From the NCBI GenBank assembly GCA_963759805.1, contig CAVXAT010000001.1, forward strand, positions 96,001-160,000: a stretch of DNA of 64,000 nt, in the 5' to 3' direction. Position 1 is the stretch's first letter; every line of letters starts with the position of its first letter. Under the pieces are notes generated by a model. It saw only the letters and a list, made by a program, of their open reading frames with translations, made no database searches and was not told the origin of the DNA. This stretch comes from an uncultured bacterium. GTDB taxonomy: Bacteria; Babelota; Babeliae; Babelales; RVW-14. This document shows, piece after piece, positions 31,921-63,638 of this stretch. The position numbers and the translations under genes are program-made.

Positions 31921-34900
31921 ATGAACAAGATGTTATCGTTTGTTGTGCTTTCTCTTGCGGTGAGTGCAACTTCTTTTGATGGAGTCTATGCCGGTCGTAC
32001 CGGACCAACAAGACAAGAAGCAGCGCAAGCGCGCAGAGTTGCGGTAAAACAGGCACATAGACAGGCTGCCCTGTTTGCGCGATTACCGCATGAAACAGCA
32101 CAAGGTACACCGCAGATTGCGAATGCACCTTCTTTTGATCGTGTTGCGCAAGAACAGTTATGTAGACAACTTGATTCGTTCGAACAACTATCAACTCAAG
32201 CTTCCCATGACACATCGCATATGCCGCATACAAGGACAACCCGTACTTTGCATATTAATCGGAAATTGGCCTACATGTTGCTTGCCTGTTTACTTATTCA
32301 ATCTGCACAAGCGGGTCCATTGGATGGCAAAATAAAACCATTGGCTGAACTAAGTGAGCAGGTAAAACAGGCCTATAATGAAGTTAAGAGCGAATACCCA
32401 GAAGCAACACACTATACGGAATTGGGTACCAAAATACTTACTAAGGCCGGAATTGGTGCCGTTGTTGGGTCAGTAGTTCCTGGTGTTGGTACCTTTACTG
32501 GTGCCGGACTTGGAGCAGCAGAGGCAATCGCACAAGAGGCACAAGCAAAAGCTATAAACAACTTTATACATGACATAGCCGGCCCAGAAGGGGAAGCAAC
32601 GATAGCTCACTACGCCGACAAGATAAGTCAGGGTGTCAACAGGCTTGGAGCCAAAGGGCTCATGGCGTTAGATAGTACATTGGACGAGAAGCTAGCAACT
32701 GGCTTTAGTGGTGATCTTGCTGAAGTAGTGTCTGAGGTTAGTTCTCTCAATTCATTTACTAAAGAGTTTTCTGAGCATACCAGTGGAATAAAACATACGT
32801 TGGGTGAAATAAAAGATGCTTTGAAAGCTGAAATAAAAGAGACAGGCGCAGAAACGGGTACACCTCAATCATTTTCTTCAGGCAATGCGTTTTCTTCAGG
32901 CAATGCTTTTTCCTCTGGAAACGCTTTTCAATCATTTTCCACAACAGGCATTCCTCAAACATTTCAACAGACATTTCAACAATCATTTTCTTCAGGCAAT
33001 GCGTTTTCTTCAGGCAATGCTTTTTCCTCTGGAAACGCTTTTCAATCATTTTCCACAACAGGCATTCCTCAAACATTTCAACAGACATTTCAACGCGCAA
33101 CTCCAACATCCAGTGATTTTGTAGGTGACGCAAAACGCTTTGTAGAACACCAAATGTATGAAGATTGGAAAGCTGAATCTTCAAGCCTTCATATACCACA
33201 CGTTCAGCATTTTTACATGCCTGATTCTGAAGCAACTCGTGCGGCTGACAATGCCCATATGAATGAACAGGCAGCACGAAGCTTTCATCAAAGATCTGCA
33301 CAGCCGTTAGCACCGTTTGGTTATATTCCAACTTATGCTGATTTTACAGCATGCATGAATTCAGCCGAATTTATATACAATAATAGAGAATTTTTTGCTC
33401 AGTTTGTAGCACTTGCTGAAAAATATAAGGCTCAGATTGGCGAAATTCATTTTCCGCCTGTTCCTAATTTAAATGGGAGGTGTGTATGTGAGTTAGATTT
33501 TTTTAAAAGTCGAGAAGAGAAAAAAAGGATAAATAATGCCGCTGTTGCAGAGTATAAGAATTTTATTGCAGAATTTGATAAACAGATTCAGGAACTTTAT
33601 AGACGCATAGATGAGTACAACGCGAAGGTAACGCGTGAGATAAATGAACACAACAAAAAGGTGAAGCAGCACAACGAAAAAATAAAAATGTATAACGAAG
33701 CTCTGGAAATTATAAGAGATATAAAAGGATTTATTGAAACAATTCATAATCCATATCCTTACGTTATAAAAATATTGAATGTTTTTTTAAAGAAAACTGC
33801 AGAAGAGTATTTTTCGCAATCATATGATGACATAAGGTTAGCTCATACAAATTTGAGAGTAACTAAAAAATTCATTGACCAGATCAATGAAAAAGATTCC
33901 ATTGGTTATTACAAATTTTCTGATTTAACTGTAGAAATTGACAAAGCAAAAATGAGCGAAAAATTTCTTGAACTGTTTAGAGGAAATACACGATCAATAA
34001 ACGTTGCTCGTTCTATAATATTAGAATTGATGTATGGAAAATATGGTGCAAAAATTAACAAGCAGGCTCAAGAACTTCTGACATTGCTCAATAAAGGGAA
34101 AATAACTCCCCCTGATTTGGCAACTTCGTTGACAGATCTTATCACAAAAGGGTTACCAACATATCGTGATTATAATTATATGCTTTCACACCTTAGTGAG
34201 TTAGGCGGTAGCTTTTTAAGAGCTGCGGCTATTCAACCAGGGATTGCCAAAATTAAAAAACAACAGTTTTTAGATGGGACACCGTCTCAAGTTGTATGTA
34301 CAGCAAAGGGCGTTTGTGGAATGGTTAATGATTGGATTACCTACATGGCTGTTACGAAAAGCGATATGGAAAAAACTCATAAATGGTTCATTGGACAAAC
34401 TTATCCGATAAACACAGCTCAAGATCTTTTAAGTTATATCATACGCCAAGGGAAATATGTTGGAGAACCTTACATACGTGAGGTCAGCGAAGCTGCAGAG
34501 GATTCGGATCTCGAACCTCTTACAACTGTTCGATCGTTAGACGGTGGTAAACAAGAGTCGCTGGCGGTTTTTAACTTTTTGGCCAAAGGCAACACTATAA
34601 AAGAAGACTATGATTCACGAACAGGTATGGCTTACAGAAGTGTTATTTTGTCTGACAAAACAAAAATTACCTATCATCCAACAACAAAAAATGGTGACGC
34701 TGTAATAGTTATAAGCGATATCCCTTCTTGGATTTTAGACGAAAAAATAGAGTTGCGATTTGCGCCACAAACAAAAGCTCCAACAACCCTTTCAGAATTA
34801 GCAAAGCAATTGGATGAAGAGAAGAAAAAACTACAAGAAGAGTTTTGCGAAGAATTTGAAAAGTTACCAGAAGAAGTGAAACGAAAATTATTGGATCTTC

Positions 34901-34923
34901 ATGATGAAATCGCCGGACTTTAG
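31921..34923 (+). CDS. Large secreted low-complexity protein with possible C-terminal toxin-like domain
   Basis: GAGG RBS, signal peptide, glycine-zipper GIGAVVGSVVPGVGTFTGAGLG, internal repeats, coiled coil. Confidence 0.75.
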   Translation: MNKMLSFVVLSLAVSATSFDGVYAGRTGPTRQEAAQARRVAVKQAHRQAALFARLPHETAQGTPQIANAPSFDRVAQEQLCRQLDSFEQLSTQASHDTSHMPHTRTTRTLHINRKLAYMLLACLLIQSAQAGPLDGKIKPLAELSEQVKQAYNEVKSEYPEATHYTELGTKILTKAGIGAVVGSVVPGVGTFTGAGLGAAEAIAQEAQAKAINNFIHDIAGPEGEATIAHYADKISQGVNRLGAKGLMALDSTLDEKLATGFSGDLAEVVSEVSSLNSFTKEFSEHTSGIKHTLGEIKDALKAEIKETGAETGTPQSFSSGNAFSSGNAFSSGNAFQSFSTTGIPQTFQQTFQQSFSSGNAFSSGNAFSSGNAFQSFSTTGIPQTFQQTFQRATPTSSDFVGDAKRFVEHQMYEDWKAESSSLHIPHVQHFYMPDSEATRAADNAHMNEQAARSFHQRSAQPLAPFGYIPTYADFTACMNSAEFIYNNREFFAQFVALAEKYKAQIGEIHFPPVPNLNGRCVCELDFFKSREEKKRINNAAVAEYKNFIAEFDKQIQELYRRIDEYNAKVTREINEHNKKVKQHNEKIKMYNEALEIIRDIKGFIETIHNPYPYVIKILNVFLKKTAEEYFSQSYDDIRLAHTNLRVTKKFIDQINEKDSIGYYKFSDLTVEIDKAKMSEKFLELFRGNTRSINVARSIILELMYGKYGAKINKQAQELLTLLNKGKITPPDLATSLTDLITKGLPTYRDYNYMLSHLSELGGSFLRAAAIQPGIAKIKKQQFLDGTPSQVVCTAKGVCGMVNDWITYMAVTKSDMEKTHKWFIGQTYPINTAQDLLSYIIRQGKYVGEPYIREVSEAAEDSDLEPLTTVRSLDGGKQESLAVFNFLAKGNTIKEDYDSRTGMAYRSVILSDKTKITYHPTTKNGDAVIVISDIPSWILDEKIELRFAPQTKAPTTLSELAKQLDEEKKKLQEEFCEEFEKLPEEVKRKLLDLHDEIAGL
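32866..33093 (+). repeat. Perfect in-frame 114-bp tandem duplication with internal SSGNAF units
   Basis: 32866-32979 equals 32980-33093. Confidence 0.9.
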
Positions 34924-34997: not shown

Positions 34998-35516
34998 ATG
35001 AACACACTTACTAAATGGTCACTTGTACTGCTAGTTGCAATAGTTACCTTAATTAATGTGGCATTTGGCATGAAGCCAACTGAAGGCGCTAGCAGTTCGT
35101 CTGCGGCGGGAGATTCTTGCTCAATTTGCCAAGAATTACTTACAGCCGATGGCTCAGATTATCAACTGCCCCGCGGACTCAGATTAGCCCATGGAATCCC
35201 AAATGTCATAACTACCACATGTGGTCACACCTTTCATACACGCTGTATTCTTAGCTGGATAGTGAATGCCTTCGGAGGCTTTAACGCAGGCAGGCTCTGT
35301 CCTTTATGTAACAATAACGTTGCAATGCAGGGTCTTTATGATAGATGTGTTGTTCGCCCAACGCTATTGGCGCGGGCAAGTAGCCGATTAACTGAAGAAG
35401 CTAAAGAACGCATGCGAATTTGTCTTAAATCCGCATGTTGGAGTTTGGCATTATGCGTAATGCTTTTTCCAATTTTATATTTCCTGTTTATATATCCTCG
35501 GAGTTTATTCGTATGA
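34998..35516 (+). CDS. Secreted RING-H2 finger protein with C-terminal TM (putative E3 ligase effector)
   Basis: CSIC...CGHTFHTRC...CPLC; signal peptide; C-terminal hydrophobic helix. Confidence 0.82.
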   Translation: MNTLTKWSLVLLVAIVTLINVAFGMKPTEGASSSSAAGDSCSICQELLTADGSDYQLPRGLRLAHGIPNVITTTCGHTFHTRCILSWIVNAFGGFNAGRLCPLCNNNVAMQGLYDRCVVRPTLLARASSRLTEEAKERMRICLKSACWSLALCVMLFPILYFLFIYPRSLFV

Positions 35517-36355
35517 AGACATTTACTAAATGGTTGCTTGCGCTGTTTGTTGCAGCATTGACCTTAACCAACGCAGCATTTGGCATGAAGCCACAAGATG
35601 CTAGCAGTTCGTCTGCGCAGGCAGAGACTGGCCTGCAAACTACGTCACAAGAATGTGTTGAACAATCGGAGCCTTGCCCGATATGCCTAGAGGATTTAAA
35701 TGACGAACGGTTTTTTAGGGAAATGGGAATCCCTATTAATCTACACCAGTGGTTTCGACCTGTGAATAAAGTTCGGTCTGGTGTAACAACACCAGCGCTG
35801 GTGAAACAACATCCAAGTGATGGAAAAACACCAGGGGGTTTTCATAGAATCCATATGAACTGCTTGCAGCTGTTAATAAGAGAAAACTATTTTAAGTGTC
35901 CGGTTTGCCTAGCAACAATAGATCTCCCTCAAGAATATCTTGAAAATGTGTCGCTTGAAGCATTGCTCAAGATGTTTCAAGCCTACAGAAAAAAATATTC
36001 GGATGTTTCAACAAATCTTTTTTATTTACGTCCCGGCACCCGATTATTAAGTATATTTTTGGAAGTAGCATTTTCTTATGCACTTGTTGCTGCTCTCTTT
36101 ACGATTCATGAAGTTCATGGGGATATCGTAATGGTTGGGGTTCTTGCGGGGTATTTTCTCATTAGAATGTTATGGTTTCCTTCCCCGGAGCCGGAAGTTC
36201 TGGATAGCCGGTTATTGCCGAGGTTACGCTTGCAGTTGCCGGAGCTTGAAAGACAGTTGCCGGAACTTGAAAGGATATATAGAAGAATACGTGCTGTGCT
36301 TTTACGTCGTACTACAAGGCCAATTACAAATTTGTTTTATAAGAAGATTTTATAA
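35513..36355 (+). CDS. Secreted RING-like protein with two TMs
   Basis: ATGA overlap with upstream gene; CPICLE...HRIHMNC...CPVC; N-terminus similar to previous gene. Confidence 0.78.
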   Translation: MKTFTKWLLALFVAALTLTNAAFGMKPQDASSSSAQAETGLQTTSQECVEQSEPCPICLEDLNDERFFREMGIPINLHQWFRPVNKVRSGVTTPALVKQHPSDGKTPGGFHRIHMNCLQLLIRENYFKCPVCLATIDLPQEYLENVSLEALLKMFQAYRKKYSDVSTNLFYLRPGTRLLSIFLEVAFSYALVAALFTIHEVHGDIVMVGVLAGYFLIRMLWFPSPEPEVLDSRLLPRLRLQLPELERQLPELERIYRRIRAVLLRRTTRPITNLFYKKIL

Positions 36356-36826
36356 GGCCTTTCTAGCCGCAAAATCCTGCTGTTAAACGCAAAATGACGC
36401 CGTTACCGTCATAATGAGACTCAAAATGGAATTAGCGATGCCACTTTGCAATATTTAATCAAAAATAACGATGTATTGTGGTCTTTTGTTCAAGCAAATT
36501 TTCAACATGGACGATATTAATCTTCTTATTAAGGTTTTCAAAATTATTTGGCTGAGTCCTATTTTTAGGCTATTATGATTGAGTTGTTACAAATAGTTTG
36601 GCCTTAAATAAAATTTAGCGGGGCCGTTATGAAAGTTTTCGCAGTTATCATATAAGTTTCTAAGCATCAGTGGCTGCTGGCTGCTGTGCTAGAATACTTT
36701 CCCTTAATTTAGCCGGTGTCGTGAATATTTCACGAATACCTTTTTGTCATCCTGAATTTATTTTATAACTGTCCGAAGTGTTTTGTTATGCAGTTTTATA
36801 CCACAAAGTTAGCTTGCTTTGATCGA

Positions 36827-36863
36827 AGCCCTGTGTCATCCTGAACTCGTTTCAGGATCCATA
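36827..36863 (+). repeat. REP-like hairpin, left arm of perfect 37-bp inverted repeat
   Basis: AGCCCTGTGTCATCCTGAACTCGTTTCAGGATCCATA. Confidence 0.9.
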
Positions 36864-36933
36864 GATTAATAAGATTCCATCAGGGGTTTTTATACTATCA
36901 TTCAAAAAAAATAGCGCTAAAAAACATTATACC

Positions 36934-37233
36934 ATGAAAACATACGTTGTTTATATTCTTGCCAACAATCCACTAGGAACTTTGTACATTGGCGTTACCA
37001 ATGACTTAAAACGACGTATGAATGAACATAAACTTGGACTTGTTGATGGATTTACTAAAAAATACGGCTTAAAAAAATTGGTCTATGTGGAACAATTCAG
37101 ATACATTAATGATGCACTTACCAGAGAAAAGCAATTTAAGCGTTGGCATCGAGAGTGGAAAATTAATCTCATTTCAGAGCATAATCCGCAATGGGCCGAC
37201 TTGTATGAAATAATTTTTGGATCTGAAATATAA
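36934..37233 (+). CDS. Stand-alone GIY-YIG nuclease
   Basis: YVVYILAN...TLYIGVTNDLKRRMNEH...ALTREKQFKRW...NPQWADL. Confidence 0.93.
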   Translation: MKTYVVYILANNPLGTLYIGVTNDLKRRMNEHKLGLVDGFTKKYGLKKLVYVEQFRYINDALTREKQFKRWHREWKINLISEHNPQWADLYEIIFGSEI

Positions 37234-37248
37234 GGATTACATACAAAT

Positions 37249-37285
37249 TATGGATCCTGAAACGAGTTCAGGATGACACAGGGCT
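37249..37285 (-). repeat. REP-like hairpin, right arm of perfect 37-bp inverted repeat
   Basis: TATGGATCCTGAAACGAGTTCAGGATGACACAGGGCT, exact reverse complement of 36827-36863. Confidence 0.9.
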
Positions 37286-37461
37286 CTGGTGAAAGCAATC
37301 AGACACTTCGGACAGGTATGAACTTGATTCAGGATCTAATTCATATAATTTTATAGGAACAGTACAATGTTTTATGCTAATCGCATAGCATATTATTTTT
37401 ATGCATTTGTGTATGTATAACGTTAAACAGTTGTAAAACAAAGATTGAAAGAAAAAAAGAA

Positions 37462-38292
37462 ATGACGAAATCAAAAGAAGTTAAAAAGTCTGAGTGGTTG
37501 AACCATGTAAATGAGATAACAAATTCAAAGCCATCTGGCGTGTTTCAAACCAAAGATAAACATGGCAAGCCTGTAGTTTTGGAGTGGAAAAAGCTCACTG
37601 TACAATCGTCGGATTTTTCAAAAACAATGAAAAGTCTTTGTGGGATTGCGTGTGCTGCATACACACCAGTAGAAACACAATTTCTTGAGACGCATTCAGA
37701 CCCAAACGTACACGATGAATATTGCAAACCATTTGAAGTTCTCTTTAAAAACAGCCCGCAGGAGCCAGAATGGCAGAGTTTTAAGAATGCACTTAAAGCA
37801 AAAGACTGGCCAAAGGTTGAGGCGATGATGCCCCTGATTATTAAACAAATCTATATCATGGATTATTCAACGTTTGGTAGTAGCCCGGACCTACATTTTT
37901 TTGTAATGGCCAAAGATGGGGAAACAAAAACATTGCTTGGATTTATAGAATTCTTTATTACTCCAGCGTATGCATCTGGTGACATCAAATGCCCGAGCTT
38001 TGCCATAGTCCCGTCTGAACAAAATCGTGGGTTAGGTAAATTGCTTATGAGTTCGATATTTAAAATTGTACCAAGTGCATGTAAGCGAATTTTTCTTTCT
38101 ACGCGCATAACAAACACGACTGCGCAAACGGCTTATTGTGCCTGGGGATTTACCAAAGATGAAAACCCTATCCAAGAGCCATATTTCAAACAGAATCCAG
38201 AACACTGGATTTTTATGGAATATAAATTAGGGCAGACAGATAAGTTGCAAAAAACAGCTGCAACTTTAATTGATTTATCTTCTGGAAAGTAA
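37462..38292 (+). CDS. GNAT family N-acetyltransferase
   Basis: Acetyl-CoA motif IVPSEQNRGLGKLLM, NTTAQTAYCAWGF. Confidence 0.85.
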   Translation: MTKSKEVKKSEWLNHVNEITNSKPSGVFQTKDKHGKPVVLEWKKLTVQSSDFSKTMKSLCGIACAAYTPVETQFLETHSDPNVHDEYCKPFEVLFKNSPQEPEWQSFKNALKAKDWPKVEAMMPLIIKQIYIMDYSTFGSSPDLHFFVMAKDGETKTLLGFIEFFITPAYASGDIKCPSFAIVPSEQNRGLGKLLMSSIFKIVPSACKRIFLSTRITNTTAQTAYCAWGFTKDENPIQEPYFKQNPEHWIFMEYKLGQTDKLQKTAATLIDLSSGK

Positions 38293-49425: not shown

Positions 49426-49451
49426 AGATCCTGAATCGAGTTCAGGATGAC
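49426..49451 (-). repeat. Uninterrupted (empty-site) REP-like hairpin
   Basis: AGATCCTGAATCGAGTTCAGGATGAC, same family as 36746/36835/37249/63349 copies. Confidence 0.85.
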
Positions 49452-61879: not shown

Positions 61880-63370
61880 ATGTTGCAAATTTTTCTTATT
61901 TTTGCTCTATTACTTCCAATAATAGTTGGGGCGCAGCAGGAAGCACCCAAGCAATTGACCACAGAAAAATTAACTCCAGAAAATTTTACCCCAAAACAAG
62001 TAACCCCCAAAAAATTAACTTCCCAGAAACTAACTATGGACGATGCCGTGCAGCGTGCCCTTACGCACAGGCCGGATCTTGAGGCCTTGCGTTATGCCAC
62101 ACAGGCCTTTGAATCTGCGGCTAAATCCGAAAGAGCCTTTTACTTCCCAACCATTGGGTTGAGAAGCGATATCTATCAGCATAATGGCGAAAAAGAACCG
62201 GACAGCTACACCGAAATAACTGTGAATCAGCAAATATACTCATTTGCAGGCCCACTCCAAAAATATCAGCGAGCAAAAAATATTGCGCAGGTTTCTGAGC
62301 TTGACAGAATCATAGAGACGAACAAAACACGGCAGGCAACGGAAAAAACATTTTTGAGTGCATGGCTAGCGCAGGAAAAAGAGAAGAGCATTGCAGTGCT
62401 GAATAAATCTGCCCAAACAACATTTCAGAGGGAGAAGCAGAAAAATAAACTAGAAAAATTGGATAAAGATGTGTGGCTTAAAAATGTTTCTGATTACGCC
62501 ACATCCATGGCAAAAGTTGATCAGTATGAAGAAGAAGTGATTATTGTTTACAAAAAACTGGAATTTCTCATGGGGGAATCACTTGCTTTACTCTCCACAT
62601 GCAGCAGCGATGGTAAACAATTATGCGATGGTAGCAAACTATGTCCACCTAAAGCCAAGCTTGTATGGCATTACAAAAAGAATTACGAGCCTGAGCCGCT
62701 TGATACATACTTTCATTATGCGCTTATTTCTAGGCCAGAGGTGCCTAAGGGATTAAAAAAGATGGCTATTGAAAAATGGAATATCAGGCTTGCGCAAGGA
62801 ACACGACTTCCAGAGATAAGCGCAAGCGCTCAAGCCGGTTGTGAAACAAATCCCAATGATAAAGAAAATACAGTTATTCCATCTACCGATCTGGTAATAG
62901 CACCTCCGTCCGCATCGGCAATTAGGCCATTTTGGGAGCTACGCGTGTCGCTGGAGTGGTCGATCTTTGATGGTCTTGTAACCCAATACAGGGAGCAACA
63001 GGCAGAGGCCGATAAAGTCAAAGAGATGCTCCAGCATGAGCAAGATATTTTGAACATCAAAGACGAGGTTCATGAAAAGTACCATACACTAGTAAAAATT
63101 CTTAAAAAGTCTCGCGAACAAAAGTTAAAATATATTCATGGCCGCAACCACTACAACCTCAAAAAACAGGAGCTTGAGCTTGGCAGAATTTCGCAGGTTG
63201 ATTTTGATGCAGAGAAAACTGCCTGGCAAGATGTTCAATTTGATTGGATCTCGTACAATGTTGAAATAGCCTCGGCCGAATGCGATCTTATGTATGCATG
63301 TGGGTATCCGGAACTTTCTCAAACCAGGTCTCCAGGGCCCAAGAAGAGAGATCCTGAATCAAGTTCATAA
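61880..63370 (+). CDS. TolC family outer membrane protein; last codons run through a REP and stop in a MITE end
   Basis: Signal peptide, LTMDDAVQRAL, RPEV, LEWSIFDG; C-terminus RDPESSS encoded by REP half. Confidence 0.85.
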   Translation: MLQIFLIFALLLPIIVGAQQEAPKQLTTEKLTPENFTPKQVTPKKLTSQKLTMDDAVQRALTHRPDLEALRYATQAFESAAKSERAFYFPTIGLRSDIYQHNGEKEPDSYTEITVNQQIYSFAGPLQKYQRAKNIAQVSELDRIIETNKTRQATEKTFLSAWLAQEKEKSIAVLNKSAQTTFQREKQKNKLEKLDKDVWLKNVSDYATSMAKVDQYEEEVIIVYKKLEFLMGESLALLSTCSSDGKQLCDGSKLCPPKAKLVWHYKKNYEPEPLDTYFHYALISRPEVPKGLKKMAIEKWNIRLAQGTRLPEISASAQAGCETNPNDKENTVIPSTDLVIAPPSASAIRPFWELRVSLEWSIFDGLVTQYREQQAEADKVKEMLQHEQDILNIKDEVHEKYHTLVKILKKSREQKLKYIHGRNHYNLKKQELELGRISQVDFDAEKTAWQDVQFDWISYNVEIASAECDLMYACGYPELSQTRSPGPKKRDPESSS

Positions 63371-63638
63371 CTGTCCGAAGTGTTAAACGTAGCTTTGAAT
63401 CGTCGGATGCGTATGGTTTTCATCGCGCTCGTCCTGAGTGATTTGCAAGCAACTTGTTGCTTAGCAAATCGTATCGAAGGATAGAGCGCAACGGCGGATA
63501 GAATAAGTTTTTAGGGCGCACCCTTCGATACGCCTCGCAAGGCTCGGCACTCAGGGCGAGCGCCCTTGAGTGAGCGCAACAAGCGTTCAGATGGCTTTTA
63601 AAACACTTCGGACAGTTATGAATCAAGTTCAGGATGAC
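63349..63638. mobile_element. REP palindrome split by about 255-bp MITE (perfect TIRs, exact target duplication)
   Basis: AGATCCT GAATCAAGTTC ATAACTGTCCGAAGTGTT...AACACTTCGGACAGTTAT GAATCAAGTTC AGGATGAC. Confidence 0.88.
63425..63566. repeat. Inverted pair of a different REP-like family inside the MITE
   Basis: GCGCTCGTCCTGAGTG..CGTATCGAAGG (63425-63489) versus CCCTTCGATACG..CACTCAGGGCGAGCGC (63513-63566). Confidence 0.8.

Follow-up and report, generated by a model that had tools for sequence, protein, structure and literature searches.

In the window, which is the whole stretch of 64,000 nucleotides that was analysed and to which plain coordinates refer, positions 36746–37337 are occupied by a nested structure, all listed parts of which had been predicted and were found again in the sequence. 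From the inside out, it consists of a short nuclease gene, a pair of inverted hairpins, a pair of transposon ends and a further hairpin that is split in two. The features, together with a sister element located downstream, are the following:

36746..36754, plus strand: head half GTCATCCTG of the target REP hairpin, read from the sequence (an intact copy lies at the orthologous site of a congener, G002:C1:15425-15448)
36755..36763, plus strand: left 9-bp flank AATTTATTT, made of the loop plus 2 stem bases on each side
36764..36781, plus strand: left IS4Sa-type end TATAACTGTCCGAAGTGT, with the terminal C of the consensus replaced by T
36782..36833, plus strand: left linker between the IS end and the inner hairpin (its final ~20 bases recur ahead of other REPs in the source genome, G000)
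36827..36863, plus strand: left arm of the perfect 37-bp inverted repeat, which includes the TGTC-tagged hairpin at 36834-36861
36934..37233, plus strand: ssn gene, 99-aa single-domain GIY-YIG nuclease of the Ssn clade (Pfam PF01541; tree; dN/dS)
37249..37285, minus strand: right arm of the 37-bp inverted repeat, with the hairpin 37251-37278 on the minus strand
37286..37302, minus strand: right linker (linkers nearly identical to it come after the same IS end at other places in G000, and one lies beside the related ssn in L226)
37303..37320, minus strand: right IS4Sa-type end CATACCTGTCCGAAGTGT, one change from the consensus
37321..37329, plus strand: right 9-bp flank AACTTGATT, identical to the loop at the G002 empty site
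37330..37337, plus strand: tail half CAGGATCT of the target REP hairpin, of the tail variant present in the G002 empty site
63366..63620 (G000:C1:159366-159620), minus strand: gene-less 255-bp sister element with the same IS4 ends and a perfect 9-bp REP-loop duplication

The element itself extends from 36764 to 37320 (557 bp, by direct reading). The GIY-YIG gene is its only open reading frame of at least 70 aa; no transposase is encoded, so the element does not qualify as an autonomous IS. The two arms are part of a 50-nt repeat with 92% complementarity, in which the predicted perfect 37-bp inverted repeat with its hairpins (36827–36863 / 37249–37285) was confirmed. The hairpin at 36834–36861 has an 8-bp stem, a 5-nt loop and a CCA tail, and 3 exact matches to the inner hairpin are found within the window, versus 0 in 100 shuffles. 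The nuclease gene is intact, as had been stated, and Y7, Y18, R28, H32, E65 and N84 can be read from its sequence. The outer layer, on the other hand, is not the mirror image that the original prediction described: it is a single hairpin split into a head and a tail half, and its 9-bp loop region is repeated in direct orientation. The two copies of this region are unequal, differing at 3/9 positions, and the left one is the commonest loop type of G000. The terminal inverted repeats are present, but their boundary had been placed one base short, as the ends begin with 5'-CA (consensus CAYAACTGTCCGAAGT); both are imperfect, reading TATAAC... on the left and CATACC... on the right. The boundary is ambiguous in a palindromic target, and duplications of 13 bp or 11 bp were considered; 9 bp was preferred because the 5'-CA ends then fit IS4Sa and because this length is also valid for L063, where the hairpin has another stem.

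Nuclease and hairpin family

The 99-aa protein has GIY-YIG (PF01541, E 1e-15) as its sole Pfam domain and is under the 150-aa limit used for single-domain members. Ssn proteins are single-domain GIY-YIG enzymes encoded between GTC-tagged hairpins, and four homologs are reported to cleave ssDNA in a hairpin-specific manner, just upstream of the hairpin (PMC11893778). The comparison with Ssn was made against the N. gonorrhoeae sequence at locus L157, which was identified as the Neisseria ssnA orthologue because both published ssnA primers (PMC11893778) match it exactly; NTS repeats are found all around this locus. The window protein is 48% identical to it (E 1e-19, for a criterion of E < 1e-10), and the two share a clade of 39 rows in a 55-row tree, with a support of 100/97 that is a rough bootstrap on few columns. 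Two other GIY-YIG types of these genomes fall outside this clade. Residues Y7, Y18 and E65 align with Y6, Y17 and E64 of SsnA, whose mutation abolished cutting (PMC11893778). No solved structure of a relative was found at E ≤ 0.001, and a promoter scan returned 4 sites, versus 2.7 by chance, none of them driving ssn.

On these sequence grounds, the nuclease and its flanking hairpins are assigned to the published Ssn/SRM system. They share with the Ssn nucleases (SsnA, cd10448) and the NTS/SRM hairpins a single-domain GIY-YIG protein of ~95–100 aa, the inverted GTC-tagged hairpins, the clade and the retained catalytic residues, and the window hairpin has an 8-bp stem starting with AT and a C directly after the stem. 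The pair can thus not be called an undescribed system, and this includes the RAYT/REP analogy, since the likeness to both IS200/IS605 and RAYT/REP was already pointed out by the same authors (Chenal 2025, PMC11893778). Three differences from the system described in the accessible portions of that paper concern the stem of the window hairpin (ATCCTGAA), which the published SRM pattern does not cover, the host lineage, which is new, and the IS4 ends enclosing the cassette, which those portions do not mention. Babela massiliensis is tabulated there without SRM and without ssnA. By analogy with the characterized homologs, the TGTC-tagged hairpin at 36834–36861 is predicted to be the Ssn recognition site, and the nuclease to nick ssDNA just 5' of such hairpins. 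An Ssn with a hairpin beyond the published pattern may have a new ssDNA specificity that could be exploited in tools.

The hairpin is a dispersed repeat with 52 full copies in the 1.50-Mb genome G000, which include 12 head-to-head pairings; a solo copy lies on the minus strand of the window at 49428–49451. The SRM pattern has 2 matches in G000, neither of them from this repeat family, and the NTS pattern has 0. We read the window hairpin as an SRM-like variant beyond the published pattern that retains the GTC tag as well as the C following the stem. It also falls under the definition of CGTC-tagged REPs that was applied here (CGTC/TGTC tag, 8–9 bp stem starting with AT, 4–5 nt loop, CCA tail), having a TGTC tag, an 8-bp stem beginning with AT, a 5-nt loop, a CCA tail, many dispersed copies and head-to-head dimers, as described for these repeats (Di Nocera et al. 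2013, PMC3733652). CGTC REPs are stated in PMC3733652 to be without a dedicated transposase; in contrast to the repeats described there, many of the G000 copies are found within IS4 and IS982 ends. REPtrons (RAYT with GTAG REPs) and REPINs are similar in that inverted REPs flank a gene and gene-less doublets occur elsewhere in the genome, whereas the window enzyme is a GIY-YIG protein and the tag is TGTC, instead of an HUH/Y1 transposase with GTAG REPs. A RAYT was rejected as the mover of the window REP, none of the five Y1 hits in G000 being directly flanked by this REP (no tag within 250 bases per side of any of the five; one has a tag ~390 bases off).

As had been proposed, the nuclease is linked with this family of hairpins: the detector found a tagged hairpin on both sides of 28 of the 39 Ssn-clade genes, versus 0 of 500 random windows. 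At 26 of the 28 flanked loci, the two stems differ by no more than 1 base, versus 13% for stems compared across loci, and stem and protein distances are correlated (Mantel r 0.38, with kin that are not independent). Five or more copies of the window hairpin are present in 13 of 41 genomes, and 10 of these 13 REP-rich genomes carry an Ssn-clade gene, versus 8 of the 28 others. An Ssn gene flanked by the window stem type is found in 6 of the 13, and no Ssn match with the window query was obtained in three of them, all drafts (G004, with 29 copies; G030, with 30; G001, with 7). The link between REP abundance and the nuclease is real but loose.

These data bear on the interpretation first put forward for the locus, according to which the nuclease would act as a RAYT analogue, excising hairpin doublets and spreading them on its own, with incidental IS4 ends. 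This is compatible with the other explanations considered here, and we judge it improbable. Opposite-strand cuts 5' of each hairpin would bracket the cassette, judging from the published geometry (PMC11893778). The correlation of stem with protein distance (r 0.38, kin not independent) and the 10 of 13 REP-rich genomes with an Ssn-clade gene, versus 8 of 28 others, also fit, as do the missing strong outer repeat in 25 of the 28 flanked Ssn genes and the REP-free site of G003, which has no IS ends. Against this stand the three genomes with 29, 30 and 7 hairpin copies and no Ssn match to the window query, the low number of REP-rich genomes (6/13) with an Ssn flanked by the window stem type, and the position of 29 of the 59 G000 hairpins just inside an IS end. 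The chemistry argues in the same direction: GIY-YIG enzymes cut by hydrolysis, with no known strand-transfer step. The mobility of the hairpin-ssn-hairpin unit is left open in the accessible portions of PMC11893778, and the present analysis bears on that question.

IS4Sa-type ends and their insertion site

The explanation that we prefer, delivery of the hairpin-nuclease unit by an insertion sequence, starts from the ends. Exact occurrences of the end motif are found in 11 of the 261 genomes of the phylum, and the same end sequence is also present in a named Babeliales record, which makes a Babeliales (Babelota/Dependentiae) bacterium the likely host. At locus L058 (genome G147), a pair of these ends lies 1258 bp apart around a 388-aa IS4 transposase (NF033592, 168.5 bits for a cut-off of 115; DUF4372 plus DDE; YREK at 296), inserted in the same hairpin. 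A metagenome scan yielded three further paired autonomous copies (L252, L254 and L264; 56–80% identity) in the same hairpin type, as well as two additional autonomous copies with one end seen. The scan listed 42 stretches and the end search in genome contigs gave 44 hits; many of both were unrelated or chance matches and were left out. Five end hits in G072 were read as the inner side of a different repeat and discarded. The element was predicted to be a non-autonomous member of a REP-targeting family, which is borne out by IS4 elements with the same ends sitting in the same hairpin. The autonomous transposase was found at L058, L252, L254 and L264 but not in G000, where neither the L058 protein query nor the NF033592 cut-off revealed a cognate transposase in a genome that is 88.7% complete. 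With the L058 query, no transposase match was obtained in 256 of the 261 genomes, and four of the five positives are only ~30% identical. Two other candidates were rejected: the four 360-aa DDE copies of G000 are without these ends, and for IS1182 as the parent of the ends, PF13751 had no match in G000 and the ends were later found around IS4 transposases.

The assignment to the IS4Sa subgroup was made by end signature and size. The ends fit the IS4Sa signature 'CA------T' (consensus CAYAACTGT...), and sister elements show 9-bp duplications; direct repeats of 8–10 bp are listed for IS4Sa together with this signature (PMC2266710, Table 1). ISRm22, a member of the subgroup, inserts at the REP axis and has mismatched repeats in 3 of 9 copies (PMC1525189). 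The family studied here resembles IS4Sa/ISRm22 in its 5'-CA ends, the T at position 9, the 9-bp duplication, the YREK transposase, a size of ~1250 bp, the insertion at the REP axis and the occurrence of some copies with mismatched direct repeats (PMC2266710, PMC1525189). It differs in that ISRm22 was assigned a 6-bp repeat in PMC1525189, and in that the window element has no transposase and carries its own target hairpin as cargo. The window ends are those of an IS4Sa-type insertion sequence whose insertions occur in hairpin loops and duplicate 9 bp. Mobile insertion cassettes such as MIC231 consist of IS4-family ends around a non-transposase gene. The window element is comparable with these and with passenger-carrying IS4 elements (IS231) in having IS4-family ends and a non-transposase gene inside, but it belongs to another IS4 subgroup, and its passenger is a nuclease plus its recognition hairpins, which are also the insertion target. 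Passenger genes are stated for the IS231 subgroup (PMC2266710).

Both window flanks align to two of three congeners (G002 and G003). At the orthologous site, the hairpin is absent in G003, while G002 carries a single unbroken hairpin, with a loop and a tail identical to the right flank and tail of the window; the window has, at the same position, the split hairpin with 557 bp inside. The junctions were read directly from the sequence, the gap being misplaced in MAFFT alignments. The proposed comparison of orthologous loci has thus yielded an empty site in G002 and a REP-free site in G003, and hairpin-free, single-hairpin and filled states are seen at one position in three congeners. The hairpin therefore came first and the element second, though not necessarily in a single clean jump. 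The mismatches at 3/9 flank positions, the loss of the left terminal C and a cognate transposase that was not found in G000 argue against a clean jump in recent times. Conversion or recombination with another copy may later have overwritten the left flank and the left IS end, in which case the window copy would probably be poorly mobile now. Among 9 distinct paired elements from the metagenome scan, the flanks are identical in 3, mismatched in 3 and reverse-complementary in 3. At L236, L252 and L264 the 9-bp flanks are reverse complements of each other, which could reflect quasi-palindrome correction or an assembly error.

Our preferred explanation, which we consider probable, is that the ssn gene lies between inverted hairpins, within IS4Sa-type ends, in the loop of a third hairpin, and that the 557-bp unit was delivered there, likely by an IS4 transposase acting in trans, with the nuclease predicted to nick ssDNA. 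The main rival is recombination between hairpin modules, in which modules composed of a half-hairpin, an IS end, a linker and a hairpin, left behind by earlier IS4 insertions, would be swapped at hairpin arms, possibly with the help of Ssn nicks, without the 557-bp unit ever having jumped. It would account for the mismatched 9-bp flanks of the window, for the solo modules of G000 (C1:213.5k, C4:14.3k, C8:55.0k, C8:114.9k and C1:16.4k, the last of which shares the lost terminal C), for seven 106-bp doublets with shuffled IS4/IS982 flanks and for the hybrid ends of L226. We nevertheless find it rather unlikely, as both flanks are syntenic with two congeners and the right flank and tail equal the empty site of G002, the element sits at the same point of the hairpin as those with perfect duplications, and mismatched flanks are also observed in autonomous copies and in 3/9 ISRm22 copies (PMC1525189). 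That the nesting is an assembly artefact produced by repeats is highly improbable: this is a repeat-rich draft genome, and the reverse-complement flanks at three other loci are possible assembly errors, but the locus is internal to a contig of 360 kb, two congeners show synteny on either side of it, and the same architecture is found in independent genomes.

Another explanation, which can coexist with delivery by an IS4 transposase, is that ssn is kept for cutting incoming or exposed hairpin-bearing ssDNA, as for SsnA in Neisseria transformation, and that its mobility is secondary. A dN/dS of 0.07–0.19 (5 of 7 homolog comparisons, the other 2 being saturated), the one Ssn-clade copy found in G000 and the in vivo role of N. 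meningitidis SsnA in Neisseria transformation (PMC11893778) are consistent with this. We think it unlikely, since ssn is absent at the orthologous site in both alignable congeners, its homologs are at unrelated loci and often broken, and purifying selection fits a selfish gene equally well.

Hairpins as cargo of insertion sequences

Three gene-less sister elements of 255 bp in G000 have identical 9-bp flanks, and the one in the window (63366–63620) has a pair of a second hairpin family inside. A fourth paired element of G000 has identical 9-bp flanks only as a 325-bp composite that uses an outer end; ends can therefore be recruited from a neighbouring module. The perfect duplications around these non-autonomous elements point to trans-mobilisation by the parent transposase.

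Hairpins are found just inside such ends well beyond these elements. A hairpin tag lies ≤90 nt inside 12 of the 13 IS4-type ends in G000 (2 mismatches allowed; background 0.0023), and 29 of the 59 G000 hairpins are within 100 nt inside an IS4 or IS982 end (background 2.5%), although these are not 29 events because many are copies of a few founders. Of the 32 IS982-type ends in G000, 15 enclose a hairpin and 6 are the ends of intact copies. The three intact G000 copies of this 1006-bp IS982 are at C1:52938-53943, C1:85714-86719 and C2:123183-124188; their own insertion sites are not hairpins, and the IS982 end sequence is found ~50 nt before 21 of the 59 hairpins. In relatives, the same IS4 ends surround pairs from several unrelated hairpin families. 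In G002 (C21) they enclose, with a perfect duplication, a GIY-YIG cassette of another clade, and one of the two ends shares ~45 nt with the 5' end of the L254 IS. In a Rickettsiales record (L103:2512-2747), they are found around a pair of NTS-like hairpins, in an element of 236 bp, and the cargo habit therefore reaches beyond the window's phylum.

At locus L231, an IS4 transposase that lacks a right end is followed by a hairpin and then by a GIY-YIG gene, inside which the contig ends; it is a candidate intermediate between an IS and a carrier. Carriers could originate from an IS that is nested between hairpins: once it has lost its transposase or one end, it would incorporate an adjacent hairpin-gene-hairpin unit. 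Relatives of the window ssn cassette are present at other loci, namely in L226 (89% identical and interrupted by an internal stop, with an IS4 end on one side and an IS982 end on the other) and in G002:C24 (last 25 codons only). The combination of one IS4 and one IS982 end is also seen in several G000 doublets; such hybrids should not be movable by a single transposase, and recombination between hairpins evidently reshuffles ends. Seven head-to-head doublets of 106 bp in G000 (C1:174281, 187851 and 213352; C2:220539; C4:89195; C8:157817; C14:5587) have shuffled IS4-type, IS982-type or plain flanks. An apparent collapse to one symmetric hairpin is seen at G000 C1:16462 and C8:79451.

Outer inverted repeats are strong in 3 of the 28 flanked ssn genes (three different sequences), weak in 2 and lacking in 23; most Ssn cassettes are therefore without a visible IS vehicle. 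The end types that enclose hairpin units in this study are IS4Sa, IS982 and at least two others. Ssn cassettes at L008, L009 and L141, and at L146 and L014, lie inside two other inverted-repeat types, located 45–80 nt outside the hairpins, and one of these types resembles the end signature of an IS4 subgroup.

Overall, these results suggest that the hairpins and their nuclease have likely spread by hitchhiking on ordinary insertion sequences. What is new here is the vehicle, i.e. Ssn and hairpin cargo within IS ends, the nuclease-hairpin pair and the REP-targeting IS4 being already known. No description of Ssn or CGTC REPs as cargo of an IS came up in a literature search, within a coverage that largely leaves out subscription journals. 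Each jump would split one hairpin and bring two intact ones, and the element would therefore multiply its own targets. More generally, CGTC-type REPs and Ssn nucleases might routinely ride DDE insertion sequences after capture of their units between IS ends, which would explain why they have no transposase of their own; we put this forward as a tentative possibility, on the doubtful side. If they do ride hairpin-targeting IS4 elements, a closed loop would result in which each jump adds two new targets, and Ssn nicks beside hairpins may then cause the deletions that turn an IS into a carrier. This bears on the question, left open in the accessible portions of PMC3733652, of how CGTC REPs spread without a dedicated transposase. 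The lineage offers a testable set, comprising an intact transposase with its ends, the target and an empty site, derivatives devoid of a gene and a candidate intermediate.

Neighbouring genes and further GIY-YIG genes

Two GIY-YIG genes of a second clade in G000 (C1:266306-266524 and C9:54564-54782) each lie between inverted hairpins of the second family, and the 255-bp elements carry a pair of these hairpins without a GIY-YIG gene. Third-type GIY-YIG genes (G000:C18:49169-49345 and C5:3782-3958) immediately follow tRNA-like sequences and a small GC-rich hairpin element, the latter of which is also present inside some REP copies. In the window, the 557-bp element adjoins eukaryote-like genes at 34998–35516 and 35435–36355: the first codes for a RING-H2 finger protein (Pfam), and its neighbour has a similar N-terminus and Cys pattern. 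Position 31921–34923 holds a 1000-aa ORF with no Pfam match and with internal tandem peptide repeats. Downstream, a GNAT gene (37367–38292) has N-terminal signal-peptide codons that are seemingly out of frame with the nearest ATG, and the open frame matching it in G003 is 710 aa long.
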